Shown here one piece after another: positions 8,539 to 57,850 of a stretch of 64,000 bases of DNA; the stretch's first letter is position 1; every line of letters starts with the position of its first letter. The stretch is from contig JBEKNE010000001.1 of the NCBI GenBank assembly GCA_049523135.1, forward strand, positions 651,234-715,233, given 5' to 3'. Both the position numbers and the translations under genes were made by a program. Under the pieces are notes generated by a model. The model was given only the letters and a program-made list of their open reading frames with translations. It ran no database searches and had not been told where the DNA came from. Origin of the DNA: Candidatus Microgenomates bacterium (lineage in GTDB: Bacteria; Patescibacteriota; Microgenomatia; UBA8517).

Positions 8539-9965
8539 TTCTTTTTAACTATCGTTCCCATAGAAGTATCTTCAAGTGTATATCCATCTTTTTCTATCTG
8601 CGTACGAAAGTCGTCTGCAGAATCATAGTTACCTCTCTGGCGCTCCAATTCCCGCTGGTCTATGTTATTTATAGTTCCTCCACTTATCATAATTGTGGGG
8701 GAAAATAAAATTGTAGCCTTTGAAACAGGTAAAACGTTTTTAACCATTTTTTCTGACTTATAGGTAGAAAGACCCAATCCCAAAATTTCATCGAGGCTCA
8801 TTGCCAAATCATATTTATCGCCCGAGGGAATATTGCTTTTAAGCATCTCCCAAAAAACTGCCAAGGCCTTGGGGGTACCCAGATCATCACTTAACGCTTC
8901 CAAAAACTCACTGCGGAAAGTTTCAATTTTATTTTCTTTTTCTTCAGATAATACACTCCTATCCGTTTGTGTTTTAAGAGAATTTATCTGATTGCGGAGC
9001 CTTTCTAAGCCGTTTTGGGCGGCTTGCAGCGAATCCCAAGTAAAGTTCAATGTATCACGGTAGTGTACTCCCAAAAATAAGTACCTGAGTGCCAACGGAT
9101 CGAACCCTTTTTTGACAACATCATCAATTGTATAAAAATTTCCTAAACTCTTACTCATCTTCTTCCCATCAACCATTAAAAATGCCGTATGCAACCAATA
9201 TCTTACAAGAGGAATCTTACCCGATGCGGCTTCCATCTGGGCAATTTCTGCCTCGTGATGCGGAATAATGAGGTCAACTGCACCACCGTGTATATCATAT
9301 TGTGGTCCAAAAAAAGTCTCCGTAATTGCAGTATCTTCTATGTGCCACCCAGGCCTGCCTTCTCCTATTTCAGTTTTCCAAGAAGGTTCATTAGGTTTTG
9401 AAAACTTCCACAAACAAAAATCATTCCAACCTTTCTTTTGCTTGTTTTCATCTATTCTAGATACGGAATCACTCTGTGAAAGTTCGGTACGGCCCGAGAG
9501 CTTTCCGTAATCCGAAAACTTAGAAATCTCAAAATATATACCGTCATCAATCGTATAAGCGTAACCTTTATCTATCAGGGTTTTAACTTGTTTAACAATT
9601 TGACTTATATAATCAGTCGCCCGTGCATATTTTGTAACGGAAATATTGTTGAGTTCTTTCATATTTTCCATGTAAATACCTTCATATTTGTTGACAAGTT
9701 CCTTCCACTCGATTCCCAACTCCCTTGATCTACTTAATATTTTGTCATCAATATCTGTGATATTTTGAAGATAAAAAACGTCAAATCCTGCATATCTCAA
9801 AAATCTTACCAAGAAATCAAATTGTGTATATGTTTTTGCATTGCCGATATGGGGATTGTCATAAACAGTTGGACCACAGACAAAAAGATTAACCTTTTTG
9901 TCATTTATCGGTTCAAACTTTTCCTTTTTTCTTGTTAATGAATTTGTTAGAAAAATATCAGCCAC
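8535..9965 (-). CDS. cysS: cysteinyl-tRNA synthetase
   Basis: Class I HIGH (PHIGNAKT) and KMSKS (KMSKSLGN) motifs. CysRS-type zinc-site residues. Confidence 0.9.
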   Translation of the reverse strand: MADIFLTNSLTRKKEKFEPINDKKVNLFVCGPTVYDNPHIGNAKTYTQFDFLVRFLRYAGFDVFYLQNITDIDDKILSRSRELGIEWKELVNKYEGIYMENMKELNNISVTKYARATDYISQIVKQVKTLIDKGYAYTIDDGIYFEISKFSDYGKLSGRTELSQSDSVSRIDENKQKKGWNDFCLWKFSKPNEPSWKTEIGEGRPGWHIEDTAITETFFGPQYDIHGGAVDLIIPHHEAEIAQMEAASGKIPLVRYWLHTAFLMVDGKKMSKSLGNFYTIDDVVKKGFDPLALRYLFLGVHYRDTLNFTWDSLQAAQNGLERLRNQINSLKTQTDRSVLSEEKENKIETFRSEFLEALSDDLGTPKALAVFWEMLKSNIPSGDKYDLAMSLDEILGLGLSTYKSEKMVKNVLPVSKATILFSPTIMISGGTINNIDQRELERQRGNYDSADDFRTQIEKDGYTLEDTSMGTIVKKK

Positions 9966-10383
9966 GATTTATTATATCAGAAGGCTCCACGCGTTTAATA
10001 CTTAATTTGTCAAAATCTTTATCATACGAAACAACCGTCATCTTTTTTGACTGAATTTTAGGATTACTCGCAATCAAGGCGTCAATAAATTTAATGTTCT
10101 TTCCTTCATATTTTCTTAGCGCATACTCCAAATCAAATTCATCAACAATTTTCAGACCATTAAGTCCAACAATTCCTTTCAAGGATTTAATAATTTTAGA
10201 TTTCGGTTCCTTATACGAAGAACTTAGCACCCAAACAATTTCAGATAAAACCTCGCCCGAAGTAAACGCCTTTATTTTTGAATCCTTTACCAATTTCAAA
10301 AGACTGGAGCATTCATTAAATATCTTTTGATTTTCCAACTCAAGAATTCTAATAAAAATGTTTGTATCAATAAAATAGTCCAT
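9958..10383 (-). CDS. vapC: PIN-domain ribonuclease toxin VapC
   Basis: FIDTNIF N-terminus with conserved acidic residues (D6, E, D, D). 1-nt junction with upstream antitoxin gene. Confidence 0.75.
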   Translation of the reverse strand: MDYFIDTNIFIRILELENQKIFNECSSLLKLVKDSKIKAFTSGEVLSEIVWVLSSSYKEPKSKIIKSLKGIVGLNGLKIVDEFDLEYALRKYEGKNIKFIDALIASNPKIQSKKMTVVSYDKDFDKLSIKRVEPSDIINRG

Positions 10384-10619
10384 TAGATTCTCTTGTAATG
10401 AGATTGCATATCCTCGCGGGCCTTAAGAGCGGTCATTCCCTTGGGAGCTTTCCCAATTGGTGCAAAATCCAATATGTCAAAAGTTGGTTCTAACTTGACA
10501 GCTTTTTCAGAAACAGAAATCATTACCTTAGAGTAAGGTTTTATACCCAAAAGTTTCCTGAAACTAAACGGTATTGTTACTTGTCCTTTTTGTGTAACTG
10601 TGGCTAATTGTACATTCAT
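10383..10619 (-). CDS. vapB: AbrB/MazE/SpoVT-family antitoxin (VapB-like)
   Basis: 78 aa. TQKGQVTIP swapped-hairpin motif. Coupled to PIN gene. Confidence 0.65.
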   Translation of the reverse strand: MNVQLATVTQKGQVTIPFSFRKLLGIKPYSKVMISVSEKAVKLEPTFDILDFAPIGKAPKGMTALKAREDMQSHYKRI

Positions 10620-19112: not shown

Positions 19113-19667
19113 TTAAATTTGAAGAAGTTCCACTTTTTTCTTCTCACCCATCGCATCAATTTTTCCGACAAACTCATCGGTTATTTCCTGAAGTTTTTTC
19201 TCTTCGGCATACTTCTCATCCTCCGTAATAGATTTTTCTTCAAATTTTTTCTTAATCTCATGCATTTCATCGGCCCGAACTTGCCTAATGGCTATCTTGC
19301 CGTTTTCCAGTTTCTGATTTAAAAGTTTTACATACTTTTCCCTATCTTCTGTTGTCAAAGGCGGCATTGTGATCCGAATAAACTCTCCATCAATTGACGG
19401 ATTCATACCGATATTTGCCTCAACTATTCCTTTTCTGATATCCCCGATTATGCTTTTATCCCAAGGGTTAATAATAATTTGTGAAGGGTCCGGAGCGGAA
19501 ATTGTTGCGAGTTCCATTACTTTCAATCTTTGGGTTCCGCCATAAGCAGGACAGATAATATTTTCGACCAAAGACGGAGTTGCCCGACCGGTTCTGATTC
19601 CAGCAATATCTGAAGTAAAAACGCCCGCACTGGACTGCATTTTGGATCTCACTGAAGCTTCATCCAT
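19113..19667 (-). CDS. frr: ribosome recycling factor
   Basis: 184 aa with RRF signature throughout. Confidence 0.9.
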   Translation of the reverse strand: MDEASVRSKMQSSAGVFTSDIAGIRTGRATPSLVENIICPAYGGTQRLKVMELATISAPDPSQIIINPWDKSIIGDIRKGIVEANIGMNPSIDGEFIRITMPPLTTEDREKYVKLLNQKLENGKIAIRQVRADEMHEIKKKFEEKSITEDEKYAEEKKLQEITDEFVGKIDAMGEKKKVELLQI

Positions 19668-20121
19668 TCTTCTTTCCCAATTCTACACGAAAAACTCTGC
19701 CAATGCGAACATTTTCTCCTGTTTTTGCAATAACTTCTTTTACCAGATCTTCAATCTTTTTACCGGGATCTTTTATAAATTCCTGTTCCGTTAACTTTTC
19801 ATCCCCCATTGAAGCAACTTGCATTGCCAAATCGCGGCCCAGAGTTTCAAAGAGCTCATTTCTGGCAACAAAGTCCGTTTCACAAAGCAGTTCGACTACG
19901 CTCACTATTTTTCCGGTATGATGCGCATAAGTAAATATTTTGCCCTCGGAAGTTTCTCTTCCCTCACGTTTTGCGGCTTTTTCGGCTCCCTCTTTTTTAA
20001 GAATTTCGAGAGCTTTCTTTTCGTCTCCTCCAACTTCCTCCAAAACCTCACGGATTCTTATAATAGCAACGCCCGTTTGTTCGCGAAGTTTTTTAATAAG
20101 GGTTATATCAATTTTTGTCAT
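19660..20121 (-). CDS. tsf: elongation factor Ts (short form). Start at MTKIDITLIKKLRE
   Basis: UBA-like N-terminus matches EF-Ts (LVKELRERTG-type). rpsB-tsf synteny. Confidence 0.85.
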   Translation of the reverse strand: MTKIDITLIKKLREQTGVAIIRIREVLEEVGGDEKKALEILKKEGAEKAAKREGRETSEGKIFTYAHHTGKIVSVVELLCETDFVARNELFETLGRDLAMQVASMGDEKLTEQEFIKDPGKKIEDLVKEVIAKTGENVRIGRVFRVELGKKNG

Positions 20122-20803
20122 GTTTATTGCCTTCTGCAATCGCCTCACCAACTAAGTTTAGTATATATTCCAAAGCTTTGCTGGCATCGTCATTCATAGG
20201 AATCGGGTAATCGATTGGGTCCGGATCCGAATTGCTGTCAACTATTCCCACAACAGAAACTTTACCCACATTTGCTTCATGAACCGCACCGGATTCCCTT
20301 TTCGTGTCGATTACAAAAAGAACATCAGGAACTTTAGTTAAAGTTTTAATTCCGCCAAAAAATCGCCCCAGACGGGCAATTTCCCGGTCAATCAGAAGTC
20401 TTTCTTTTTTGGTGTATTTATTATAAACGCCTGTCGTCATATTTTCCTTCATTTCCTCCATTTTTTTGATGGATCTTTTTATCTGCTCAAAATTGGAGAT
20501 AGTGCCCCCTAGCCATCTTTCGTTAACATAAGGGACACCAACCTTTTCGGCAACCTCGGCAACTTTATCTTTAATCTGTTTCTTGGTTCCCAAAATTAGT
20601 ACGGTTTTACCTTCTTTGACGGATTTTGTAATAAACACCAGAGCTTCCTCAATTAAAGGCTTGGTTTTGGTTAAATCAAAAATGTGAACGCCACCTTCCT
20701 GCCCATAGAGATATTCCTCCATTTTAGGATTCCAGCGCTTGGTTTGGTGACCAAAGTGAGCTCCCGTATCCATTAATTCTTCAAGTGAAACTTTAATAGC
20801 CAT
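20108..20803 (-). CDS. rpsB: 30S ribosomal protein S2
   Basis: MAIKVSLEELMDTGAHFGHQTKRWNPKM canonical S2 N-terminus. Confidence 0.95.
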   Translation of the reverse strand: MAIKVSLEELMDTGAHFGHQTKRWNPKMEEYLYGQEGGVHIFDLTKTKPLIEEALVFITKSVKEGKTVLILGTKKQIKDKVAEVAEKVGVPYVNERWLGGTISNFEQIKRSIKKMEEMKENMTTGVYNKYTKKERLLIDREIARLGRFFGGIKTLTKVPDVLFVIDTKRESGAVHEANVGKVSVVGIVDSNSDPDPIDYPIPMNDDASKALEYILNLVGEAIAEGNKHDKN

Positions 20804-20886: not shown

Positions 20887-21390
20887 TTAGCCTAAAGCTG
20901 CAAGAGACTTTTTGTTTATCTCAATATTCTCTTCGGCAGATTCGAAGGCTGCATTGGCCAAATATTCCGCGCTCATCGCATCCGAGTGGGCATTTTTATT
21001 CCCGATTTTGGATACCTCCATGGCCATTTCCCCTATCTCCTTAGCCAAGGTTGATACTTTTTGTGGAATTTCAATTGCCCAATACAAAGCCGCCTTAATC
21101 TTAGATTTATCTTCGGACTTATACGATTCCATAACTTTTTGAAAAGCTTCACTATCGGCATCCGCCAAATCCAGCAATTCAATTCTTACCTCCTGCATTC
21201 TTGTGGAAATTTCCTTAACTCTGCCCTGAACTTCGGGATAAGATTTTCTCCCGATAGTCAAATTGCAGACCATCTCAACCAAAGCCGCAGACAAAGATGC
21301 CGTCACTGCCGCAACAGCTCCTCCGCCGGGAGTCGGTTTAACGCCCCCAACATCTTTCAGAAAATCTTCAATTGTTTGTTTTTTAATCAT
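20887..21390 (-). CDS. formiminotetrahydrofolate cyclodeaminase / cyclohydrolase-family protein (FTCD C-domain, stand-alone)
   Basis: GGGAVAAVTASLSAAL motif characteristic of FTCD_C. 2-nt gap from formiminotransferase gene. Confidence 0.7.
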   Translation of the reverse strand: MIKKQTIEDFLKDVGGVKPTPGGGAVAAVTASLSAALVEMVCNLTIGRKSYPEVQGRVKEISTRMQEVRIELLDLADADSEAFQKVMESYKSEDKSKIKAALYWAIEIPQKVSTLAKEIGEMAMEVSKIGNKNAHSDAMSAEYLANAAFESAEENIEINKKSLAALG

Positions 21391-21392
21391 AT

Positions 21393-22271
21393 CTATTCGA
21401 ACAGTTTCTTTTCCAAAACCTGTTCCGATTTAAAGCCTTCAGCTTTGAAAGTAGTTTTAACTGCCTTCACTAAAGATTCGAGAGGTATCATACCATAAAT
21501 TTCCGAACTTTCTACTCCAACGTTCAATTTTCCGGCTTCAGATTCAACCGCGCGGTAGGCCTCATCAAAATTTGTTTTTTCAAAATCTACCAAATTCATA
21601 GAAACCTGGGCAAATCCCCCAACATTAAATCCAAGCGCTTTAACTCCGGTTAATCCCCCGTTTTTCTCGCGAATTTTCCCGGCAATATCTTTAGCGACCT
21701 GTATATCTTTTGTATCAAGATTTACATTAAAAGCTACTAAATACTTTCTGGCTCCAATGACAACTGCTCCTGCGGTCGGATGAATTTCGGAAGGACCGTA
21801 ATCGGGAGTTTTCATCTTTTTCCTAAATCCTTCAAACTCCCCAACTCGGATATCAGCCAAGTTCCTATTTTCTGGTTTTTTCGCCGACTCTTCATACATA
21901 AAAACGGGGATTTTAAGTTCGTCGGCAACTTTTTTGGCAAGTTTATTTGAAAGCTCTACACATTCCTCCATTGAAATTCCTGAAACGGGAACAAACGGCA
22001 CAACATCCGTAGCCCCAATTCTTGGATGTTCTCCTTTATGTTTGCTCATATCAATAAGCTCAGTAGCTTTCTTTATAGACTCAAATACTGAAGCCAAAAC
22101 ACTCTCCGGCTCTCCAACTATAGTGAAAAGCATACGGTTATGATCGGGGTTACTCTCAAGTTCAAAAACCCTAACGAACTTTATGGATTTTGCAGCATCA
22201 AAAATTGCATTAATAACTTTGGAGTTCTTGCCCTCACTGAAGTTTGGTACGCACTCAACAATTTTGTCCAT
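21393..22271 (-). CDS. glutamate formiminotransferase (FTCD N-domain, stand-alone)
   Basis: ECVPNFSEGKN hallmark N-terminus, about 290 aa. Confidence 0.8.
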   Translation of the reverse strand: MDKIVECVPNFSEGKNSKVINAIFDAAKSIKFVRVFELESNPDHNRMLFTIVGEPESVLASVFESIKKATELIDMSKHKGEHPRIGATDVVPFVPVSGISMEECVELSNKLAKKVADELKIPVFMYEESAKKPENRNLADIRVGEFEGFRKKMKTPDYGPSEIHPTAGAVVIGARKYLVAFNVNLDTKDIQVAKDIAGKIREKNGGLTGVKALGFNVGGFAQVSMNLVDFEKTNFDEAYRAVESEAGKLNVGVESSEIYGMIPLESLVKAVKTTFKAEGFKSEQVLEKKLFE

Positions 22272-22285
22272 TTGGACTTATTATA

Positions 22286-22987
22286 TCAAAGAAGTCTCTT
22301 TTCTATTACTTTCCTTATCCTCTCCTGAATAAGTATAGTATCGCCACCGATGTCGCCCGTTGTCACACAGGGAATTGACATCCACCAGCCGCTATTGTCC
22401 TTGACTGTCCTCAAATACTCTCTATAAGAGTTTAGTTGGTGACTAAAGTCCCTCTCTGCAATATCTCTCTTTTTGCCTTTGATATAAGCCCTGTCATTCT
22501 TTGTTTTGTTCAGCTTACTGGAATCCACAGGGGATCTATCCAAAAATAAAACCAGGTCGGGCTTTAAAAGTCCAAGTTCATCCCAACCCATTTTCCAAAT
22601 CCATTTTCTAAAATCACTTTTGGCCCGAGTTTTTAACTTGGCTATCTGATGAACATTAGAGGTAAAATAGCGATCCGAAAGTACCCATCCTCCATTCTCT
22701 ATCCATTTTCTACCAATATCTCTACTCCATGTATATTGGTCAAGCATATAAGTCAGAGTAGCTAAATAAGGACTAACATCCTTCAGTTCTCCAAATTTAC
22801 CAGAAAGGAACTCTCCGACAAGTTTTCCCCATTCGGAGGAATAATATCTGGGGAAGGCAGTTACAAGCAGCTTATCATTGCCAATTTTCTCTTTTAAAAA
22901 ATCTTCAAGCAGTCTGACCTGAGTGGCCTTTCCGCTTCCGTCAACTCCTTCAATAACAATAAACTTCCCTCGTTGTTTCATTATCAT
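22286..22987 (-). CDS. tmk: thymidylate kinase family protein
   Basis: P-loop IVIEGVDGSGKATQ, DRY motif, LID region. 4-nt overlap with dNK gene. Confidence 0.75.
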   Translation of the reverse strand: MIMKQRGKFIVIEGVDGSGKATQVRLLEDFLKEKIGNDKLLVTAFPRYYSSEWGKLVGEFLSGKFGELKDVSPYLATLTYMLDQYTWSRDIGRKWIENGGWVLSDRYFTSNVHQIAKLKTRAKSDFRKWIWKMGWDELGLLKPDLVLFLDRSPVDSSKLNKTKNDRAYIKGKKRDIAERDFSHQLNSYREYLRTVKDNSGWWMSIPCVTTGDIGGDTILIQERIRKVIEKRLL

Positions 22988-23760
22988 AATCTTAACCTTA
23001 ATGACTCACCTGATAAACCGTGGAAAACATCAACACCTCCAGAGTTTTGCCCGACCGGTATTGCCGGTAAAACAAATCTGTTATCTTGTTTAAACTTTAA
23101 TAAAATATATGTTTCAATTCTGTTGGCCAAACTTTCAACACTTGAGGTCTCATTCCCGCATGAAGTATATGCAAATAATTTAAATGTATTGTTATCTTTT
23201 TCTTGCCTCCACTCTTCAACCGACTCCGAAAGTTTTTCCAAATATTCCGGATAATTTTTCAAAATCCAAAGTTCATATGCTCTTCCCCTCTCTACAATCC
23301 TTCGTTTTAGATCATCTTGACTGGCAGAAACAACTACATGCATGTCAGGATATACCAAGTGCTTTGCTTCCGCTAAAGCAAAAAATGCAGTGTTATATAA
23401 ATTCCACTCCTTATCATTCATCCAACCCATTTTGTGATGCGTTTGCGCATATATAAAATCCATTGTTAATGAAGGGTCAATTATTGTTGTTGTCTCATTT
23501 ATGTCTAATTTTTCAAGCTGTTCCATCTTGGATAACATAAAATGGAATTGACATCTGAAACTGTATTCATAAGGGCTTGCATAAAACTTGGCAAGATACG
23601 GATTTTCCGTATATTTTTCTTCTATGGGGGTTACGCTCCATCTTCTTCCAAGCTCTCCGGAAAGGGTTGTTTTTCCGCTGGCAAGACAACCGACAAAACC
23701 AATAACAAGCGGTCTTTTTATAAGTGTTTCTTTTCCTCCTAAATTTTCCTTCATACTCAC
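22984..23760 (-). CDS. deoxynucleoside kinase (dAK/dGK/dCK family)
   Basis: P-loop GCLASGKTT, ERS-like and LID arginine motifs of dNK family. 4-nt overlap with thyX. Confidence 0.75.
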   Translation of the reverse strand: MSMKENLGGKETLIKRPLVIGFVGCLASGKTTLSGELGRRWSVTPIEEKYTENPYLAKFYASPYEYSFRCQFHFMLSKMEQLEKLDINETTTIIDPSLTMDFIYAQTHHKMGWMNDKEWNLYNTAFFALAEAKHLVYPDMHVVVSASQDDLKRRIVERGRAYELWILKNYPEYLEKLSESVEEWRQEKDNNTFKLFAYTSCGNETSSVESLANRIETYILLKFKQDNRFVLPAIPVGQNSGGVDVFHGLSGESLRLRL

Positions 23761-24719
23761 TTCTTTATTAATCCCAATTTCTCAAACTTTTCCAGCATCT
23801 CTTCTTTTTCCCTTTTATTTGTCATTCCGGTACTGCCGGCACTATTCAAAATTTCATCTTTTGAAAAACTAATATTATTTTCTTTCATAACTTGCGCCAT
23901 AACCTGCTGCTCGGGTCTTGATAATTTCGTTGCATAAAGTTCATAGTCCTCAAAAGCTTCCCACGCAAGAGGTACCGCGTCTTTTAAAATACCCGACATC
24001 GCTTCCGCGTAAACTCTAATTTCATATTGCGCGTGCGGATCCGCCCGTAAATGCAGAAAGTGAAATAAATTGTGAAGATCTGTCTTCCAATACCACTGTG
24101 TATAAAAATTTAAAGAAAGATCCATCCGCGACAGTTCTCTTGCAAACATATCCCGTTCAGGGTCCTTTGGTTTTCCCATCCCGTCATCATTAAGCATAAA
24201 TTCGTAATGCTCGTAATTCCGAGCTGCATCCTCAATCAGAAGTTTTTTTATGGCTTCCGCCTGTTCTTTGCTAACGGATTCGTCTCTTCCTTGACGATTG
24301 CTTTTGGACTGGATTCCCATGACTTCGGGTTCAGGAATATAAAATTCTTTATCCAAAATTGAAAACCTCGCAGAATATTCATTAATACTGGCGGTTCTAT
24401 GTCTCACCCACTGGCGGGCAACAAAAATCGGCATTTTTGCATGAAACTTAAATTCATCCATTTCAAAGGGTGTCGTATGTTCATGACGATATAAGTATCT
24501 GATAAGTCCGCGCGTTTCATTTATGCTTCTTGTTCCTGTTCCGTACGAAACACGGGCAGCCTCCTCGATGGCTTTATCGTTCCCCATGTAATCAACCAAA
24601 TACACAAAGCCGTGATCAAGAACCGGAATAACTTCTCCCAAGCGTTTTTCGGCACCGGGGCTTATCGGTCTTTTGGTTTCACTAAGCGGAAAGTTGAGGA
24701 TTTGTCTTTCGGCGGTCAT
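23757..24719 (-). CDS. thyX: flavin-dependent thymidylate synthase ThyX with about 60-aa C-terminal extension
   Basis: RHRTASINEYSARF (RHRx7S ThyX motif). Confidence 0.9.
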   Translation of the reverse strand: MTAERQILNFPLSETKRPISPGAEKRLGEVIPVLDHGFVYLVDYMGNDKAIEEAARVSYGTGTRSINETRGLIRYLYRHEHTTPFEMDEFKFHAKMPIFVARQWVRHRTASINEYSARFSILDKEFYIPEPEVMGIQSKSNRQGRDESVSKEQAEAIKKLLIEDAARNYEHYEFMLNDDGMGKPKDPERDMFARELSRMDLSLNFYTQWYWKTDLHNLFHFLHLRADPHAQYEIRVYAEAMSGILKDAVPLAWEAFEDYELYATKLSRPEQQVMAQVMKENNISFSKDEILNSAGSTGMTNKREKEEMLEKFEKLGLIKK

Positions 24720-24804
24720 ATGTTTATCAAAGATATTTAGCAGTTAGGTAAGGGGCATGTCAATATGTAAACAGTCGAAGAAAAGGCTCTATAGTTAGTA
24801 ATCA

Positions 24805-25161
24805 CTATCTGTTATCCCCATTTCCGTGGATAGTACCTTTTATTTTTCTTGCTGCGAGTTTCTCCAAATTCATTTTGGCAATATCTGAAAGCTTCAAATT
24901 AAGTTCTGTGGAGAGCTGGGCCAAATACCACATAACGTCTCCCAACTCTTTCGCAATTTCTAATTTATATTCCTTGGTAAGTTTTCCACCGTGATCTCTA
25001 AAAAGTTTTTTTATTTTTTCAGAAACTTCTCCGGTTTCCCCCTGTAAACCCAAAAGCGGATAAACAAACTTTTTGCCAACCTTTGGATAAACTGCCGTTT
25101 TTTTACACTGTTTTTGGTATTTATCAAAATCCGAGAATCCCATTGCAAAAGATTCTAACAC
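24805..25161 (-). CDS. MazG-like nucleoside triphosphate pyrophosphohydrolase (all-alpha NTP-PPase)
   Basis: 118 aa. GLQGETGEVSEK...ELGDVMWY EExxE/D metal-binding helices. Confidence 0.7.
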   Translation of the reverse strand: MLESFAMGFSDFDKYQKQCKKTAVYPKVGKKFVYPLLGLQGETGEVSEKIKKLFRDHGGKLTKEYKLEIAKELGDVMWYLAQLSTELNLKLSDIAKMNLEKLAARKIKGTIHGNGDNR

Positions 25162-25179
25162 ATATATATTAATTACTGA

Positions 25180-25731
25180 ATGTTAATTATTGGAATTACA
25201 GGAACTCTCGGGGCAGGTAAAGGAACCATTGTTGATTATCTTACTAAGGAAAAGGGATTTGAACACTTCTCCGTATCAGAATACTTAACCGAAGAACTTA
25301 AAAAGCAAAAACGCCCTATCGACAGAGATGGGATGAGAGAGATTGCAAATGAAATAAGAGAAAAGCACGGACCCGACTACATCACAAAAGTTTTATTTGA
25401 AAAGGCAAAAAAAGAAAATGGCAACGCAGTTATTGAAAGTATCAGAAATCCTAAAGAAGTGGAGTTTATAAAAAATCACGGAGGAGTTTTGTTTGCAATC
25501 GATGCAGATCAAAAAATCCGATACGAAAGAATAAAATCACGCGGTTCTGAAAAAGATAATGTTACATTTAAAGAATTTCAACTTCAGGAGAAAAAGGAAA
25601 AAGAGTCAACCGATCCAAATGCTCAAAATTTATCAAAATGCATATTGATGTCCAACTATAAATTTGATAACAATGGCAGTGTAAAAGATCTATATGACAA
25701 AGTCGAAAAAGTCATCATCAAAATCAAATAA
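25180..25731 (+). CDS. P-loop nucleoside/nucleotide kinase-like protein (adenylate/dNMP kinase-like)
   Basis: Walker A GITGTLGAGKGT at N-terminus, 183 aa. Family assignment beyond P-loop NMP-kinase fold uncertain. Confidence 0.5.
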   Translation: MLIIGITGTLGAGKGTIVDYLTKEKGFEHFSVSEYLTEELKKQKRPIDRDGMREIANEIREKHGPDYITKVLFEKAKKENGNAVIESIRNPKEVEFIKNHGGVLFAIDADQKIRYERIKSRGSEKDNVTFKEFQLQEKKEKESTDPNAQNLSKCILMSNYKFDNNGSVKDLYDKVEKVIIKIK

Positions 25732-26215
25732 ATACAAAAGACCTTCCTGGGATGATTACTTCATGGAGGTAATGAACGCCATTGCCAAAAGGGCGACGTG
25801 CGATCGTGGCAGAGCCGGAACGGTGATTATTAGAGATAAACAAATATTGGCTACCGGATATGTCGGCTCCCCTGTTGGGTTTCCTCACTGCGATGAAGTG
25901 GGACACGACTTAAGAAAAAGTTTCAATGAAGACGGAACCGTGTCACAACACTGTATTAGAACTGTGCATTCAGAACAGAACGCCATTTGCCAGGCGGCCA
26001 AACGCGGGATTTCAATTGATGGGGCAACCGTCTATACCAGAATGACCCCATGCAGAGTTTGCGCAATGCTCCTTGTAAACTGTGGTATCAAAAGAGTTTA
26101 TTGCGAAAGAAAATATCATACAGGCAAAGAATCGGACAAGATATTTAAAAAGGCCGGAGTAAAAATCGAATATAAATATAACAAACTCCAAGAATATTCA
26201 AATCAAAAAGGTTAA
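25694..26215 (+). CDS. dCMP deaminase (cytidine/deoxycytidylate deaminase zinc-binding)
   Basis: HSEQNAI (H-x-E) and PCRVCA (PCxxC) zinc motifs. Confidence 0.85.
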   Translation: MTKSKKSSSKSNKYKRPSWDDYFMEVMNAIAKRATCDRGRAGTVIIRDKQILATGYVGSPVGFPHCDEVGHDLRKSFNEDGTVSQHCIRTVHSEQNAICQAAKRGISIDGATVYTRMTPCRVCAMLLVNCGIKRVYCERKYHTGKESDKIFKKAGVKIEYKYNKLQEYSNQKG

Positions 26216-34034: not shown

Positions 34035-34574
34035 ATGATCCGAAAGATTTTACTATCAAACGACCCGGTCTTGCGTCGGAAATCAAAGCCGGTTGCCAAA
34101 ATCGATAAAAAAATATCAGCCCTGGTCAAAGATTTAAAAGACACTCTTAGTGTCCAAAAGGATCCTGAAGGAGTAGGTCTTGCTGCTCCCCAAATCGGCA
34201 AAAACCTGAGAGTCTTTGTTGCCAATTACAAAGGTTTTGAAAGGGTTGTGATAAACCCCGAAATAATCAAAATTGAGAAAAGAAATAAAGATTCCAAACC
34301 CGTTAAAACTTCCAAAAACAAAGAAATTCTGGAAGGCTGTCTTTCACTTCCCTACTATTACGGACCGTTAAAAAGAGCCCCAAAAATTACGGTCAAATAT
34401 CTCAACGAAAACGGAAAAGAGGTTACTGAAACCCTTGAAGGATTTAATGCTCAAATAATTATGCATGAAATCGATCATCTTGAAGGAGTTCTTTTTATCG
34501 ACCATATTATCAAAGAGAAAAAACCTTTATATAGGGTTGAGGGAGATGAATGGGAGGAGGTTGAGCTTGTATGA
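34035..34574 (+). CDS. def: peptide deformylase
   Basis: GVGLAAPQIG, EGCLS, HEIDHL motifs. Confidence 0.9.
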   Translation: MIRKILLSNDPVLRRKSKPVAKIDKKISALVKDLKDTLSVQKDPEGVGLAAPQIGKNLRVFVANYKGFERVVINPEIIKIEKRNKDSKPVKTSKNKEILEGCLSLPYYYGPLKRAPKITVKYLNENGKEVTETLEGFNAQIIMHEIDHLEGVLFIDHIIKEKKPLYRVEGDEWEEVELV

Positions 34575-35443
34575 AGATAGTATTTTTTGGAACACCAGAT
34601 TACGTTATGCCGATTCTCACTTCCCTGCATAAAAAATTCGTAACCGGACCGGGAAAGTCTCCGATCATTGCTGTTGTGACACAACCCCCAAGACCGGTCG
34701 GCAGAAAACAGATTCCTGCATATTCTCCCGTTGATAAATGGGCACACGCTCGAAAAATTCCGATTTACTACTCCGCAAACGATTTAATTGATAACCCTAC
34801 GGAGGCGGTTTTGGGAATTTTGGCTTCTTACGGAGAAATTATTAAAGAGGATGTTATCGATTTGTTTCCCCAAGGAATTTTGGTAATTCACCCATCTCTT
34901 CTGCCAAAATACAGAGGCGCTTCCCCGGTTCCTGAAGCGATAAAAAACGGCGACGAAACTACGGGGGTCACAATATTCAAAATGGACAAAAAAATGGATC
35001 ATGGTCCGATTATTTCCCAATTTAAAGAAGAAATTTTACCCGGGGATACCGGGGAAACTCTGAGAGCCAGACTTTTTGAAAAATCGGCTGGTGTCCTTAC
35101 CGAATTAATAGGACCTTATATCCAAAGTAAAATTAAGCCAAAAATCCAAGATGAATCTTTAGCGACTTATACAAAAATTATTACAAAAGAGGATGGTTTT
35201 ATTGACCTTAATAAAAAATCGACGGATGAAGCCGACAGATTTATTCGCGCTATGCAGCCTTGGCCCTGTGCCTGGACCCGGATTCGAGTTTCGGAAGAAA
35301 ATAAAAGGCTGAAAATACTAAAGGCACACCTCGAAGAAAACAAATTAATCTTGGATGAAGTACAACTTGAAGGCAAGCTCCCAACCACTTGGAAACAATT
35401 TAAAGAAGGCTATAAAGATGCAACTTTTGAAACGGGACGTTGA
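34571..35443 (+). CDS. fmt: methionyl-tRNA formyltransferase
   Basis: FFGTP N-terminus, formyltransferase core (HPSLLPKYRG). Overlaps def stop by 4 nt. Confidence 0.9.
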   Translation: MKIVFFGTPDYVMPILTSLHKKFVTGPGKSPIIAVVTQPPRPVGRKQIPAYSPVDKWAHARKIPIYYSANDLIDNPTEAVLGILASYGEIIKEDVIDLFPQGILVIHPSLLPKYRGASPVPEAIKNGDETTGVTIFKMDKKMDHGPIISQFKEEILPGDTGETLRARLFEKSAGVLTELIGPYIQSKIKPKIQDESLATYTKIITKEDGFIDLNKKSTDEADRFIRAMQPWPCAWTRIRVSEENKRLKILKAHLEENKLILDEVQLEGKLPTTWKQFKEGYKDATFETGR

Positions 35444-40064: not shown

Positions 40065-40325
40065 TTACTGACTAGCGTATTTATGAAGAACCGAGGACGC
40101 AAGAGTTTGATAAGGAATCCCCTCTTCAGCTGCTTTAGCTCTTAAACGTGCTATAACTCTTTCGGAAAGTCTAATGTTTATGTTTTTGGTCTTGTTCAGA
40201 GTATTCTTAGCGATTTTTTCATAAAGTTTTTTCGCTTTCTTAAAATCTGAAACTGAGACAAACGTCCCCTTTTCAAAATCTTTCAAAATAGTTCTTTCAT
40301 CTTTTGTTAATTCGTAATATTTCAT
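40065..40325 (-). CDS. brnA: BrnA-type antitoxin (ribbon-helix-helix, COG3514-like)
   Basis: C-terminal ...IRLSERVIARLRAKAAEEGIPYQTLASSVLHKYA typical of BrnA. Overlaps toxin gene by 4 nt. Confidence 0.65.
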   Translation of the reverse strand: MKYYELTKDERTILKDFEKGTFVSVSDFKKAKKLYEKIAKNTLNKTKNINIRLSERVIARLRAKAAEEGIPYQTLASSVLHKYASQ

Positions 40326-40609
40326 TTTTTTCCACCTCCTTTAACTATATATTTTTTAGTTGCCTTTCGGCTTGGAATAATCGTTTTCAAAAACACTTTC
40401 TCCTCATCTTCAACAAAAGGTACTAAATAAACATAGTTGTTAATGTTTAGCACAAACATTTTTTGATTAGGATATTTCTTCTGATTTGGATGCTTAACTA
40501 TATCCAAAAGTCCACCAGATTCTATCGCTATATAAACTTCTTCAAAAGAGATATCCCGTTCAGCCTTAAGCAACCTATTTTTCTCTTTATTCCAATCGTA
40601 ATACTTCAC
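40322..40609 (-). CDS. brnT: BrnT-type ribonuclease toxin (DUF497/COG2929-like)
   Basis: YDWNKEKNRLLKAERDISFEE N-terminus (F-x-WD-x-x-K-x-x-N-x-x-KHG-like pattern), about 95 aa, upstream of RHH antitoxin. Confidence 0.65.
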   Translation of the reverse strand: MKYYDWNKEKNRLLKAERDISFEEVYIAIESGGLLDIVKHPNQKKYPNQKMFVLNINNYVYLVPFVEDEEKVFLKTIIPSRKATKKYIVKGGGKK

Positions 40610-53768: not shown

Positions 53769-55610
53769 TTATTGTTCTAAACCGGAAGAAAATAGCGATT
53801 TTAGGATATCTTTGGTGGCATCATACTTCTTCCCCTTTTCAACTTCCCAATGCAAATCATAACCCGGAGCACCGTTTATCTCTATCACGAAAAAGCGACA
53901 ATGGGCATCGTGTATATTTGGAGAAATTATATCTACCCCACAAAATCTCAAACCTAAAGCCTTTGTCGCTTTAATCGCTATTTGAGAATATTTCAAATCA
54001 AAATGTTCAACGTTCTCAACAGTACCTCCTGTGTGGGCATTTGCATTCATGCGTAATGTAATTTTCTCGCCTTTGGCCGGAACACTATTGTATCCCAAGA
54101 CTTGTTTTGTAAGCATTCTCTCGACTTCATAATTTAATATCAACGGTTCTATCCTCCCGTTATTATATTTCTCTATCAAATCAATTATTGTCAAATTTCC
54201 ATCGCCAACAACGGAAGGTAAAACTCTACGTGCTACTGCTAGTACCCTTCCATCTAAAACAAGAAAACGATAATCCTCCCCTTCCACATATTCCTCAATT
54301 AATACTGATTTATATTTCTCCCTGACTCTATTAAATGTTTCCTTAAGCTCATCAACATTCTCAAGTTTTGCTGCCACAAATTTTCCGGACGATGCGGTAT
54401 CGGGTTTTATTACTAAAGGAAAAGAAATTTTTTTCGTTTTTAGTGATTGCAGGACTTCCTCCCAGGTGCCAGCTAGAATCCCCGCTGGTGTTGGTATACC
54501 GCACTTTCTCAAAATCTCTTTCGTCAAATTTTTCCTCTTGGTCAACTTGGTTGCAACCGTCGAATTCAAAGAAAAGAGATTCTTAAATGTAAAAATAGTT
54601 TTTCCATTTTTTGAAATTTCATAAACTCTTTTATCCGCAGGGTATTCATGCACAAAATATCCCAGTTTTGCCGCATCTTTAGCAAAATCGTCCATCAGTG
54701 TTGTAGATCTGGGTTTATCGGTAATCAAAAATTTGATAATCTCTCTCTCAACATTCAACCCGGTGTCCTCTTTAATAGAATCCCATTTGGGTGCTGAGTT
54801 TACCTCAAGTATAAAAAGATTTCCGTTTTCGTCTTCCAGAATATCAACTCCAGCAACATCAATTGAAAGAGCATTTACCGCTCTTTCAGCCAATATTGAA
54901 TATTTGTGGGGTACCTTTTTATACGACATTTTTACAGGACCCTCTTTACCAAAATGGTCCTTCCATCTAGTAGGTCTAACAATTGCAGCCATTGCTTTGC
55001 CGCCAATTACAAGAACTCTAACTCTTATACTTGCTTTGATAAATTCTTGCGCGAGAAATCTTTCACCTAATATCTCCCGAATTGTCAGATCTTCAATCAG
55101 TCCATCTAATTGCTTTTTATTCTCCGATAACCATACGGCACGCCCCCTTTTACCATTGGTACCTTTAATAACAAAGGGGAAACCAAAAATTTTTGGTGCC
55201 TGTTTCCCAATCTTTTTCAAAGACATAAACAATGTCCTTGGAACAGGAATGCCATTTTCAAATAAAAGTTTTGTCTCAAGACCTTTAGCTAGTGGCAATC
55301 GGATAAATAGGGACTTTTGATACATTCCGTCAACAACTTTTACTCCGTTTTTTCTGGCATAATCGGCAACTATCGACGCATCTTCAAAATGCTTACTTAC
55401 AACTCTAAAGTAAATTACACCGAAAGAAGCAATGTCCTTACCTTTAATTAAAATTACAGGAGCAGCAGATGTTTTATTAAGGTCATATTCCAAATCCAAA
55501 AATGATGCTGTAGTCATATCCAGCCCCATCACTTTACCCTCTCTGGAAAACGCGGTGAGATGATTTACTTTTCCACCAGTGATAATTAATATTTTCTTAT
55601 TATTTGTCAT
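53769..55610 (-). CDS. tandem double ATP-grasp protein (two RimK/cyanophycin-synthetase-N-like ATP-grasp modules in one 613-aa polypeptide)
   Basis: Module 1: FPFVIKGTNGKRGRAVWL, ILEVNSAPKW. Module 2: FPLVIKPDTASSGKFV, EEYVEGEDYRFLVLDGRV, FFVIEINGAPG. Confidence 0.7.
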   Translation of the reverse strand: MTNNKKILIITGGKVNHLTAFSREGKVMGLDMTTASFLDLEYDLNKTSAAPVILIKGKDIASFGVIYFRVVSKHFEDASIVADYARKNGVKVVDGMYQKSLFIRLPLAKGLETKLLFENGIPVPRTLFMSLKKIGKQAPKIFGFPFVIKGTNGKRGRAVWLSENKKQLDGLIEDLTIREILGERFLAQEFIKASIRVRVLVIGGKAMAAIVRPTRWKDHFGKEGPVKMSYKKVPHKYSILAERAVNALSIDVAGVDILEDENGNLFILEVNSAPKWDSIKEDTGLNVEREIIKFLITDKPRSTTLMDDFAKDAAKLGYFVHEYPADKRVYEISKNGKTIFTFKNLFSLNSTVATKLTKRKNLTKEILRKCGIPTPAGILAGTWEEVLQSLKTKKISFPLVIKPDTASSGKFVAAKLENVDELKETFNRVREKYKSVLIEEYVEGEDYRFLVLDGRVLAVARRVLPSVVGDGNLTIIDLIEKYNNGRIEPLILNYEVERMLTKQVLGYNSVPAKGEKITLRMNANAHTGGTVENVEHFDLKYSQIAIKATKALGLRFCGVDIISPNIHDAHCRFFVIEINGAPGYDLHWEVEKGKKYDATKDILKSLFSSGLEQ

Positions 55611-55612
55611 TC

Positions 55613-56914
55613 TTATTGTGTTGGATTAATTAAAAAACCAGCCATATCGTTCCTACCCATTAAAAACCGCGTTGACATTCTTGACCTGTCAGTCACCGAG
55701 GCGGTTGATCTAATCTTTTGTCCAGCAATTATATAAGTAATCCCAATCACAGGTCGTGTTTGTAAACCACTTGCCGATCTATATTCATACTTGTCTTTCC
55801 ACAAAATATTTTCTTTTGTCATTAACCCTAAGTCTTCAGCAAGTCCCCTATCAATTGAGCTTCTCATTGCCCCTGTATCAATGCGTGCAAGTATCCTGAC
55901 CCTCCTGGATTTGTCAAAACTGTATATTTTTATTTCCTCTAAACCTTTGAGAGTTTTTATTCCTTCCTCCTGTGCTGCCCTATTTTCAAATCTTCCCGCA
56001 AAAAGCATTTTGGCAATTCTGACTCCGTGATCCGCATCAATTACATTCAGGTCATCCACTCTCTCCAGTCTCTTTTTAAGACCCTCTCCATTGGCAAGCT
56101 GAATCTGAAGCCCGGGTTGGGCATTAAGTTCAAGAACCATCGGTCCTTTATCTGGATGTAAAACGATATCAACCCCCACATAACCCAAATTGGAAGCTTC
56201 AGCCGCCTTGACTGCCGTTTCTAAAATCAAAGTCCAATTAGGTACTTTTACTCCCCGAAGTTTCCTTCCCGTGTCGGGTTTGTACACAATTTGACTTCCG
56301 TGCCAGATGGCATTTGTTGTTGTACCTGTTGCAATATCCACTCCAACCCCAAGTGCACCCTGATGCAAATTGGCTCTTCCGCCGCTTTCCTTCGTAGGTA
56401 ATCTAAGCATTGCCATAACGGGAATTTTGTTAAAAACAATTATACGGATATCGGGTGTTCCGCGATAAGCATACCTTCTGAAAGCTTTGGCACGGCCTAC
56501 ATATTCCTGAATAAAAGCAACATCGGGATCGTTTCCCATTGAATATGCTCCTTCCAGGATATCCAAAGTGTGAAGTTTAAGATCATCAGCCGTTACCCGC
56601 TCTTTCTGCGTAGTCAGCCATATAGGCTTACCGTTTGATTTCAATCGCCTTTTAACTACAATTATTCCCTCTCCTCCCATTCCCCGACTTGGTTTCAAAG
56701 CAAACTGGTCAGGAAGTGACCCCCAATCGGACTCAAGAACATCCTTAGGATCCATAAACTTCTTAAAAATTTCAGGGTGCGCCACTTCAGCTTTCTTAAG
56801 TACTCTTGCCGTCTGAATTTTGGAATCGGCAATACTTTTACCGCGCTTGGTATTATATTTGTATGCAAAAAGCTGAGTTCTGGCATTAAGCCCCAAAATC
56901 GAGGATGTTTTCAT
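55613..56914 (-). CDS. RimK-like alpha-L-glutamate-ligase-family ATP-grasp fused to C-terminal retropepsin-like aspartyl protease domain (pfam05618/RimB-like)
   Basis: ATP-grasp motifs FALKPSRGMGGEGIIVV, ANLHQGALGVGVDI, VLELNAQPG. C-terminal RILARIDTGAMRSSID (D-T-G-A active-site signature). Confidence 0.7.
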   Translation of the reverse strand: MKTSSILGLNARTQLFAYKYNTKRGKSIADSKIQTARVLKKAEVAHPEIFKKFMDPKDVLESDWGSLPDQFALKPSRGMGGEGIIVVKRRLKSNGKPIWLTTQKERVTADDLKLHTLDILEGAYSMGNDPDVAFIQEYVGRAKAFRRYAYRGTPDIRIIVFNKIPVMAMLRLPTKESGGRANLHQGALGVGVDIATGTTTNAIWHGSQIVYKPDTGRKLRGVKVPNWTLILETAVKAAEASNLGYVGVDIVLHPDKGPMVLELNAQPGLQIQLANGEGLKKRLERVDDLNVIDADHGVRIAKMLFAGRFENRAAQEEGIKTLKGLEEIKIYSFDKSRRVRILARIDTGAMRSSIDRGLAEDLGLMTKENILWKDKYEYRSASGLQTRPVIGITYIIAGQKIRSTASVTDRSRMSTRFLMGRNDMAGFLINPTQ

Positions 56915-56920
56915 ATAATT

Positions 56921-57850
56921 TTAACCTTTGATGAGTTTTCTAAACCTGTAGAATTCCATAACTCGAAGTCCTGTATATTTACCAAGGATGAGATCAAGGG
57001 CTGCCATTAAAACGAGAGAAATTTCAGGGTTCAGAAGTACATACTTTTGAAGCGGCTGAAAAGTCAAAAACAAGTATGAAACAAGCGACAGAATTAAAGT
57101 TTCAAAAGTTAAGTTCAAAGCCGTTTTGACACTTTTGCCAAGCTGAACTCTTGTAAAGTCCTCCGCCAGAAGGATTAGGATTAGAACCGCAAAAATGGAA
57201 ACGTTAGCAAGAGCCGAGAAACTAAGTACGGGAGCCAAGAATAAAATGCCTAAAACCCCAACCACAACAGCCCAAAGAATAAATGACATTCTGGGAAGGT
57301 ACTGAAGCCTGATCTTCAGCCTTCGGAGAATCATACGCACAAGCGTCGAAACGGTAACAATTACCAGGAAAAGTCCAATTCCGACAACCGGCCCTGTTGC
57401 CACAAACACAACCGACAAAGCGGCAGGGAGGAAAATTCCGAATCCTCTAATTCCTATCACATTACGCGAAAATGCTATGACAAAAGTTATGATAGGCAAA
57501 AGGAGCAAAAGAACAATTGTATTGGCAGGTACCCCTGAGGCTACCGCGCCACGGATCGCATACTTAACGGGGTTAAACGGCCAAACCGGGCCCAAAGTCT
57601 GATTTTTCAAAAGTGACTCCAGTGGACCCAGAGATTCTGTGCTCTTCTGAGTGATATCGATAGGTGCAGCAACAGGTGTAGGAGTTAGAGTCACAATGGG
57701 AGTTGGAGTCGGGGTTGGGGTTTGGGCTCTTCCCAAAGCCAAAGACGGCCTTACTAGCACCAATCCCAAAACCACAAAAAGTATTAAAAATATTTTTCTC
57801 ATGGAAAAAGTTTTCTCGAAAGTAAGGCTATTATACCATAAATGTCTCAA
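56921..57850 (-). CDS. polytopic membrane protein (signal/TM, Pro/Thr linker, about 7 TM). Candidate partner of ATP-grasp system (7TM_transglut-like, no transglutaminase domain seen)
   Basis: Hydropathy pattern. 6-nt gap to ATP-grasp/protease gene. Confidence 0.45.
   Translation of the reverse strand: MRHLWYNSLTFEKTFSMRKIFLILFVVLGLVLVRPSLALGRAQTPTPTPTPIVTLTPTPVAAPIDITQKSTESLGPLESLLKNQTLGPVWPFNPVKYAIRGAVASGVPANTIVLLLLLPIITFVIAFSRNVIGIRGFGIFLPAALSVVFVATGPVVGIGLFLVIVTVSTLVRMILRRLKIRLQYLPRMSFILWAVVVGVLGILFLAPVLSFSALANVSIFAVLILILLAEDFTRVQLGKSVKTALNLTFETLILSLVSYLFLTFQPLQKYVLLNPEISLVLMAALDLILGKYTGLRVMEFYRFRKLIKG

Follow-up and report, generated by a model that had tools for sequence, protein, structure and literature searches.

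In this study, we analysed a 64-kb stretch of the genome of a Candidatus Microgenomates bacterium (the window, positions 1-64000), in which two folate genes directly follow the genes of a compact thymidylate cluster. On the minus strand, thyX (23757-24719, 320 aa), a gene for a P-loop protein resembling deoxynucleoside kinases (dNK-like, 22984-23760, 256-258 aa) and tmk, the putative thymidylate kinase gene (22286-22987, 233 aa), are followed by a stand-alone gene for glutamate formimidoyltransferase (FT, 21393-22271, 292 aa) and a gene of the FTCD_C family (CD, 20887-21390, 167 aa). We consider, with modest confidence, that these genes probably form a housekeeping operon for the steps dUMP -> dTMP -> dTDP, which is conserved in the lineage and would be co-expressed with a module for the recycling or re-loading of folate. 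Of the source contig (780,708 bp), the window and some 17 kb of flanking DNA were readable, and gene families were assigned by Pfam and NCBIfam profile searches. The eight open reading frames (ORFs) named in the original prediction were recovered with the same limits, and their families were backed by these searches.

The proposed operon is supported by several lines of evidence. First, the order of the cluster is kept in relatives while its members are exchanged. Using exact-protein look-ups and ORF reading, we compared nine Microgenomates loci with readable upstream sequence, including the window, and all of them keep the order of a ThyX-type gene, Tmk, FT and CD, with rpsB coming next wherever the locus reaches that far. 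As the same order is found in independent Microgenomates genomes, the clustering is not due to chance. The shorter loci L011 and L090-L092 are consistent with this order, and the sequence FT-CD-rpsB is kept in L011, L090-L092 and L170-L175. The genes between topA and FT vary from locus to locus. In the window, they are kinL and a dCMP deaminase gene (dcd), both divergent, and then mazG, thyX, dNK and tmk. The complete Woesebacteria genome (L170, CP066686.1) has divergent kinL and dcd, thyX, a thymidine kinase gene (TK, PF00265) and tmk; L171 has mazG, thyX (303 aa), dNK and tmk; L172 has thyX (598 aa), dNK and tmk; L173 has divergent kinL and dcd, mazG, thyX (599 aa) and tmk; L174 has divergent kinL, thyX, TK and tmk; and L175 has thyX (542 aa), TK, dNK and tmk. 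In L010, a dCTP deaminase gene and the gene for a 517-aa protein with an RHR motif precede tmk, and in L012, nrdD, dut, thyX (548 aa) and tmk are followed by a fused tmk-FT gene.

Across these loci, the ThyX-type protein is the canonical one of 320 aa or has 303 aa or 517-599 aa, and Tmk is of the FPRY or the EPGG type. The salvage kinase is dNK, TK (standing between thyX and tmk in L170 and L174) or both (L175), and the upstream slot for dUMP supply is filled by MazG, Dut (L012) or dCTP deaminase (L010). FT itself is 75-77% identical to that of the window in L010 and L170-L172 and 55% identical in L012, and the adjacency is also kept in the distant members L012 and L092, where FT is 54-55% identical. 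Because FT is conserved while the ThyX and Tmk genes are replaced, it is the function that is kept at this position, and such replacement in place argues more strongly than synteny by itself that co-location is under selection.

Some of the genes found in relatives deserve mention in their own right. Long, very divergent Thy1-domain proteins (517-599 aa) stand at the thyX position in L172:5741-7537, L173:2700-4499, L175:2526-4154 and L012:6528-8174, and two Thy1 stretches were matched in those of L172 and L012. At the same position in L010 (L010:6740-8293), the 517-aa putative ThyX-type protein carries the RHR motif only and has no Pfam match. A BLASTP search with the window ThyX gave no match to the long putative ThyX-type proteins of L172, L173, L175, L012 and L010. 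The L170 island also contains two extra genes (L170:3843-4802 and L170:8391-8999), one for a 319-aa protein with a weak PRTase-CE match, which adjoins the deaminase gene, and one for a 202-aa protein with no Pfam match, which lies between tmk and FT.

Second, the two functions are joined in a single protein in one relative. In Microgenomates ADurb.Bin219, one ORF (L012:8888-10912, P0241) encodes an N-terminal domain, a Tmk of the FPRY type and FT, and this N-domain is flagged as nucleoside-deoxyribosyltransferase-like (PF05014) in some homologues. Five variants of the fusion (664-677 aa; P0241, P0512, P0513, P0515 and P0516) were present in NCBI, JGI and Logan assemblies, and because they come from independent assemblies and have different linkers, the fusion is not a sequencing error. 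The fusion is limited to one 90%-identity cluster, and the next 22 Tmk-containing matches have the N-domain and Tmk and no FT; we therefore rejected the idea that it is a Rosetta stone of wide occurrence. In Patescibacteria, proteins that combine the N-domain with Tmk, lack FT and measure about 375 aa are common (P0242-P0263). The functional link between folate and thymidylate that had been proposed for this cluster finds support in the adjacency, which persists although genes are replaced, and in the relative that fuses Tmk to FT.

The tight same-strand coupling described in the original prediction is largely confirmed and is also in favour of the operon. As read from the sequence, the tmk ATG overlaps the dNK stop codon in an ATGA, and the spacing is 14 nt between tmk and FT and 2 nt between FT and CD. 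The original prediction had placed ATGA overlaps at both junctions of thyX, dNK and tmk; this is correct for dNK/tmk, but the thyX/dNK junction reads TGA-gt-ATG with a 2-nt gap, and an overlap (GTGA) is obtained only with a GTG start. Downstream of CD, rpsB follows after an 83-nt spacer, in which a scan called no minus-strand terminator, and rpsB may be co-transcribed with CD. We infer that the genes from thyX to CD are co-transcribed.

Among the thymidylate enzymes, ThyX has scores well above threshold (TIGR02170, 177.6 bits against an equivalog cutoff of 87.9; PF02511, 172.5 bits), is about 58% identical to the solved ThyX 6j61 (245 bits) and matches Thermotoga maritima ThyX with about 164 bits. 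When aligned to both, the substrate-binding block FVARQWxRHRxASxNExSxR is conserved, and the RHRX7S motif is found as R106-H107-R108...S116. The original prediction had asked for a check of canonical against hydroxymethylase-like active sites; with the motif and the block both kept, the site is of the canonical kind, and judged by its sequence the window protein is a canonical flavin-dependent thymidylate synthase.

The Tmk is recognized by PF02223 (47.9 bits, cutoff 27) and stays below the equivalog cutoffs of TIGR00041 (55.8 against 83.25 bits) and NF005923 (93 against 193 bits). It is of the type found in Mycobacterium tuberculosis and eukaryotes and resembles the M. tuberculosis thymidylate kinase (TMPK) 1g3u in its full-length alignment, the FPRY-type motif, the P-loop with Asp (GVDGSGK) and the SDRY/DRY motif, but the match is just 51 bits. 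Undoubted Tmks occupy the same slot in relatives. The dNK-like protein matches PF01712 with 92.7 bits (cutoff 27) and the Mycoplasma deoxyguanosine kinase 2jaq with 48 bits, and its P-loop (GCLASGKTT) and Arg-rich lid (RRIVERGRAYE; RxxxRGRxxE) align with those of 2jaq. On these grounds it is probably a salvage kinase for thymidine or other deoxynucleosides that belongs to a divergent subfamily.

Upstream of thyX and on the same strand lies the MazG-like gene (24805-25161, 118 aa from a GTG start or 112 aa from an ATG), with a PF03819 score of 36.7 bits (cutoff 22). A single-sequence search of the PDB with this protein found nothing and a family profile was needed, which matched Bacillus MazG 5ie9, YpjD, the integron MazG 2q73 and DCTPP1. 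The metal-site residues E42xxE45...E72xxD75 of the ExxE(12-28)ExxD motif are invariant in 37 homologues. An AlphaFold2 model (predicted local distance difference test score, pLDDT, 89.4) has four helices, and its best fold matches are the mouse and human dCTPase DCTPP1, YpjD and the dUTPase DR2231, with a TM-score of about 0.6. The protein is likely to be a dCTP or dUTP pyrophosphatase giving dCMP or dUMP.

Compared with the dCMP-deaminase route to dTTP of Gram-positives and eukaryotes (DCTPP1/dCTPase, dCMP deaminase, thymidylate synthase and TMPK), the window cluster offers the same sequence of reactions, with a plausible enzyme for each step. The differences are that the window uses ThyX in place of ThyA, so that dihydrofolate reductase is not needed, that its putative pyrophosphatase is a 118-aa single-domain MazG, and that its deaminase is translationally coupled to an extra protein of kinase fold.

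Of the two folate proteins, FT scores 365.3 bits with TIGR02024 (equivalog cutoff 221.25), carries both subdomains (PF07837, 234 bits; PF02971, 80 bits) and has the ECVPNFSEGK motif. It is identical to NCBI MGA3292254.1, and more than 120 Microgenomates proteins share at least 74% identity with it. CD matches PF04961 with 152.5 bits and NF045657 (FchA) with 129.5 bits against a cutoff of 275, and it scores 107 bits with the putative cyclodeaminase TM1560 (1o5h) and 93 bits with the characterised methenyl-tetrahydrofolate (methenyl-THF) cyclohydrolase FchA (7vg4). By sequence, CD could be a formimino-THF cyclodeaminase or a methenyl-THF cyclohydrolase, and its conserved pairing with FT favours the cyclodeaminase. 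The strict retention of CD speaks for either a real formation of 5-formimino-THF or a cyclohydrolase activity of CD. The pair has the same domains (PF07837/PF02971 and PF04961) in the same order as the bifunctional FTCD of animals and the fused FT-CD of bacteria; in contrast to these, FT and CD are separate genes in the window, and the C-domain of rat FTCD matches CD with only 51 bits.

The setting of FT in the window differs from that in other phyla. Our FT profile scan covered one genome per species and JGI metagenomes and gave at least 160 loci, with few Microgenomates among the matches listed. Among these listed matches, CD follows FT in 89 of 160 loci, FT and CD are fused into a single ORF in 82 of the 144 loci from other phyla that have a complete FT gene, and in those phyla FT sits by histidine-utilisation (hut) genes and is mostly fused to CD. 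The description of FT and CD as a split pair in the original prediction is thus fair. The commonest neighbours within 5 kb of FT were a HutI-like amidohydrolase (at least 34 loci) and urocanase (at least 31), followed by histidine ammonia-lyase (HutH, at least 10) and formate-THF ligase (at least 7). Thymidylate genes stood beside FT solely in the Microgenomates loci among the matches listed. In a Thermotogota locus (L016), thyX lies 3 kb from FT, but unrelated ABC-transporter and beta-propeller genes stand between them and we treated the proximity as coincidence. No hut genes were found within 6-10 kb of FT in the window, nor were any detected in the Microgenomates loci examined.

What FT and CD may do beside thymidylate genes is suggested by earlier work on folate. 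Nucleotide biosynthesis has been reported to be lacking in Microgenomates, and about 80% of the genomes of the candidate phyla radiation (CPR) have FolD and GlyA. Work by Jeanguenin in 2010 reportedly found FT to be needed for the use of supplied 5-formyl-THF. In a minimal Mycoplasma genome, an analogous enzyme is essential and is possibly the entry point for scavenged folate. Experimentally, FT (COG3643) was found to moonlight for 5-formyl-THF cyclo-ligase (5-FCL) and to dispose of 5-formyl-THF (Jeanguenin et al. 2010, as summarised in PMC3223725). The window FT belongs to the same family, above the TIGR02024 equivalog cutoff, and the role proposed here, the return of 5-formyl-THF to the folate pool where folate is limited or supplied, is alike. 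However, the characterised cases are found in histidine-utilisation operons, whereas FT and CD of the window stand in a proposed thymidylate and ribosomal-protein operon without nearby hut genes.

Based on these data, we propose the following scheme for the supply of dTDP and dTTP, with two routes to dUMP. The MazG-like protein would convert dCTP or dUTP to dCMP or dUMP, and the deaminase would convert dCMP to dUMP, with kinL as its partner or as a dNMP kinase. As the other route, the dNK-like protein (TK in some relatives) would bring salvaged deoxynucleosides to dNMPs. ThyX would then use dUMP and 5,10-methylene-THF to give dTMP and THF, and Tmk would convert dTMP to dTDP. FT and CD would keep a small, presumably scavenged folate pool usable: FT would remove or use 5-formyl-THF in place of 5-FCL and would also move formimino groups to THF, and CD would convert 5-formimino-THF to 5,10-methenyl-THF. 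By analogy, upkeep of a usable folate pool appears to be the best-supported role of FT-CD. The order of reactions in the original prediction (deoxynucleoside -> dNMP, dCMP -> dUMP, dUMP -> dTMP and dTMP -> dTDP) appears to hold for the enzyme families assigned here.

Several observations weigh against the proposed operon or parts of it. In the window Tmk, the Arg of the LDR motif is replaced by Gln, this Arg is kept in 7 of 7 aligned relatives, and the exact activity of the protein is uncertain. Likewise, the Arg of the ERS/DRS motif is absent from the dNK-like protein, which has DPS at this position; four relatives have DPS, DPG, VPS or DAG, 2jaq has DRT, and the exact activity of this clade is uncertain as well. 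The adjacency of FT-CD and tmk could in part reflect inherited gene order and not selection. In addition, disposal of 5-formyl-THF by FT needs no CD, yet CD is always present.

The last point leads to a second reading of the folate genes, that of the original prediction, which we regard as possible but doubtful. It holds that the THF released by ThyX is charged by FT with a formimino group from formiminoglutamate or another donor and is returned, through 5,10-methenyl-THF, to methylene-THF by CD and a FolD-type dehydrogenase, which would give thymidylate synthesis its own one-carbon source, independent of serine hydroxymethyltransferase. CD is retained by FT in every Microgenomates locus, FT is by score a full glutamate formimidoyltransferase equivalog, and the Tmk-FT fusion links the consumers of both ThyX products, dTMP and THF; the frequency of FolD and GlyA in CPR genomes is also in its favour. 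However, such a route needs a formimino donor as well as FolD after methenyl-THF, and the hut genes, the commonest neighbours of FT elsewhere, are missing around FT in the Microgenomates loci examined. Moreover, GlyA, if present, already supplies methylene-THF. Disposal of 5-formyl-THF by FT explains the link between folate and thymidylate at least as well as a dedicated one-carbon supply.

Two further readings are, in our view, improbable. According to the first, there is no coupling at all, and FT and CD are mere neighbours in a lineage of conserved gene order, serving general folate metabolism or histidine catabolism. The 20-kb region from mreB to recR is indeed wholly syntenic among relatives, the gaps of 14 nt (tmk-FT) and 83 nt (CD-rpsB) alone do not prove one transcript, and the promoter and terminator scans were uninformative, with 23 promoter-like sites, barely above the 15.9 expected. 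Against this reading, the adjacency has outlasted repeated swaps in which non-orthologous types took the place of thymidylate genes, it is held even where FT is just 54-55% identical, and the Tmk-FT fusion protein exists. According to the second, which goes further than our proposal and is no more probable to us than the absence of coupling, the cluster is a self-contained thymidylate unit with its own one-carbon supply through FT-CD (from a formimino donor or from scavenged 5-formyl-THF), independent of serine hydroxymethyltransferase, with physically associated proteins and with kinL and the deaminase as a housekeeping relative of anti-phage dCTP deaminases. A physical association of the thymidylate and folate proteins is suggested by the Tmk-FT fusion in one relative.

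The kinL and deaminase genes require separate consideration, and they lie divergently on the plus strand. kinL (25180-25731, 183 aa) encodes a protein of the P-loop NMP-kinase fold (AAA_18, 53 bits; PRK08356, 73 bits, under the cutoff). Its AlphaFold2 model (pLDDT 89.7) is closest to the uncharacterised Sulfolobus protein SSO1041 (UPF0200), followed by adenylate kinase and UMP/CMP kinases. Across Microgenomates, members of the family share 60-76% identity, and many of them match PF21448 (DNMK) faintly. The kinL protein is a candidate dNMP kinase, or it may bind nucleotides as a partner of the deaminase. The deaminase gene (dcd, 25694-26215, 173 aa) encodes a zinc-dependent enzyme with the HxE and PCxxC motifs (PF00383, 80 bits; ComEB TIGR02571, 117 bits, under the cutoff), which matches the Streptococcus mutans dCMP deaminase 2hvv with 102 bits and, by these likenesses, is an ordinary zinc dCMP deaminase. 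The 38 nt at the 3' end of kinL also encode the start of dcd in another frame, and this overlap runs through an A-rich stretch. The sequence KYKRPSWD(D/E)YF is conserved at the N-terminus of the deaminase, also in the fused relative P0517, and because it precedes the internal Met, we place the start at the ATG at 25694. In-frame fusions of kinL and the deaminase are P0517 (345 aa) and P0158. Among the syntenic loci, the pair is limited to the window, L170 and L173, and L174 has kinL without the deaminase.

This arrangement recalls the anti-phage dCTP deaminases (Tal et al.; NF041025 and the PADLOC dCTPase model) and Vibrio DcdV, in which a kinase at the N-terminus and a zinc deaminase at the C-terminus, with homology to kinL and the window deaminase, are joined. 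That the pair is a split version of this nucleotide-depletion defence and not a supplier of dUMP is, to our judgement, very unlikely. The two proteins do match the two halves of the models: with NF041025, kinL scores 43 and the deaminase 50 bits, and with the PADLOC dCTPase model kinL scores 71 bits (positions 155-330 of 630) and the deaminase 57 bits. In the defence enzyme the kinase and deaminase domains are both essential, the fused 345-aa form exists in a relative, and the pair is present in just some syntenic loci. However, the NF041025 scores fall far short of the equivalog cutoff of 400, ordinary dCMP deaminases (2hvv and ComEB) are much nearer to the deaminase, and kinL is well conserved in Microgenomates and occurs without the deaminase in L174. 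The window has two genes, which are fused in the close relative P0517; they run divergently from the thyX operon, and their surroundings, with topA, thyX and rpsB as neighbours, are those of a core housekeeping region and not of a defence island. With two overlapping genes (183 + 173 aa), scores below the cutoff and no defence context, membership in the anti-phage dCTP deaminase family was rejected, and we regard kinL and the deaminase as related to the defence fusion but serving housekeeping.

The original prediction had also raised a role in DNA modification, in which the cluster, as in phages, makes a modified pyrimidine for DNA hypermodification; this is extremely improbable, as all that speaks for it is that classes of enzyme overlap in a general way (dNMP-kinase-like, dCMP deaminase, MazG and a thymidylate-synthase-type enzyme) and that many kinL relatives match PF21448 faintly, and against it stand a canonical ThyX, which shares about 58% identity with a bacterial ThyX of solved structure, the lack of hydroxymethylase-type, transferase, amidotransferase or DNA-kinase genes in the annotated surroundings and a core chromosomal, vertically conserved locus. 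To our knowledge, the known hydroxymethylases are ThyA-like. As for the kinases, kinL has no homologue among phage proteins at E<=1e-3, and the identity of Tmk with phage Tmks does not exceed 37%.

The surroundings of the cluster are those of a housekeeping region. It is placed between topA and rpsB-tsf-frr, with mreB, a penicillin-binding protein (PBP) gene and topA on the upstream side and rpsB, tsf, frr, rseP, proS, HIT, yqeY, ybeY, dnaX, ybaB and recR on the downstream side. rpsB (20108-20803, minus strand, PF00318) is the first gene of the run rpsB-tsf-frr-rseP-proS. No signs of phage or mobile elements were seen in the annotated surroundings. Another folate form is used by fmt (34571-35443), which together with def occupies 34035-35443. 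Two candidate regulatory elements were discarded. A sigma-70-like promoter upstream of thyX, spotted by eye, was not called by the scan, and we claim no promoter; the CD-rpsB hairpin CGCAGGTT...AACCTGCG, considered as a regulatory element or terminator, did not exceed shuffled sequence in stability (z = -0.72).

Other features of the window are noted here for completeness. EF-Ts (19660-20151) is short, with about 153-163 aa or approximately half of what is usual in bacteria, and its gene overlaps the end of rpsB; short EF-Ts of 133-153 aa are likewise called in relatives. At 53769-57850, two ATP-grasp (RimK-like) genes adjoin a gene for a 7TM_transglut membrane protein, and this group has the look of a cluster of the peptide-ligase/transglutaminase type, with no relation to the thymidylate operon. 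Two toxin-antitoxin pairs (BrnT/BrnA-like and MazE/PIN) lie amid housekeeping genes at 40065-40609 and 9958-10619. The GC skew is negative in 30 of 32 2-kb segments of 1-64000 (cumulative -3.42), which agrees with an asymmetry of strand composition that has been reported for some Microgenomates genomes (PMC7143001).

In conclusion, every enzyme of this cluster comes from a known family and nothing in it is categorically new; a known substitution, that of FT for 5-FCL, would be extended by it to a new context. The split kinL/deaminase pair is a plausible housekeeping relative of the dCTP deaminases and could help to explain their essential kinase domain. In genomes of about 0.8-1 Mb, with nucleotides and presumably folate scavenged, selection appears to hold folate recycling together with ThyX and Tmk, and we believe that this gives a concrete hypothesis on the way in which a tiny folate pool is kept working in CPR bacteria.

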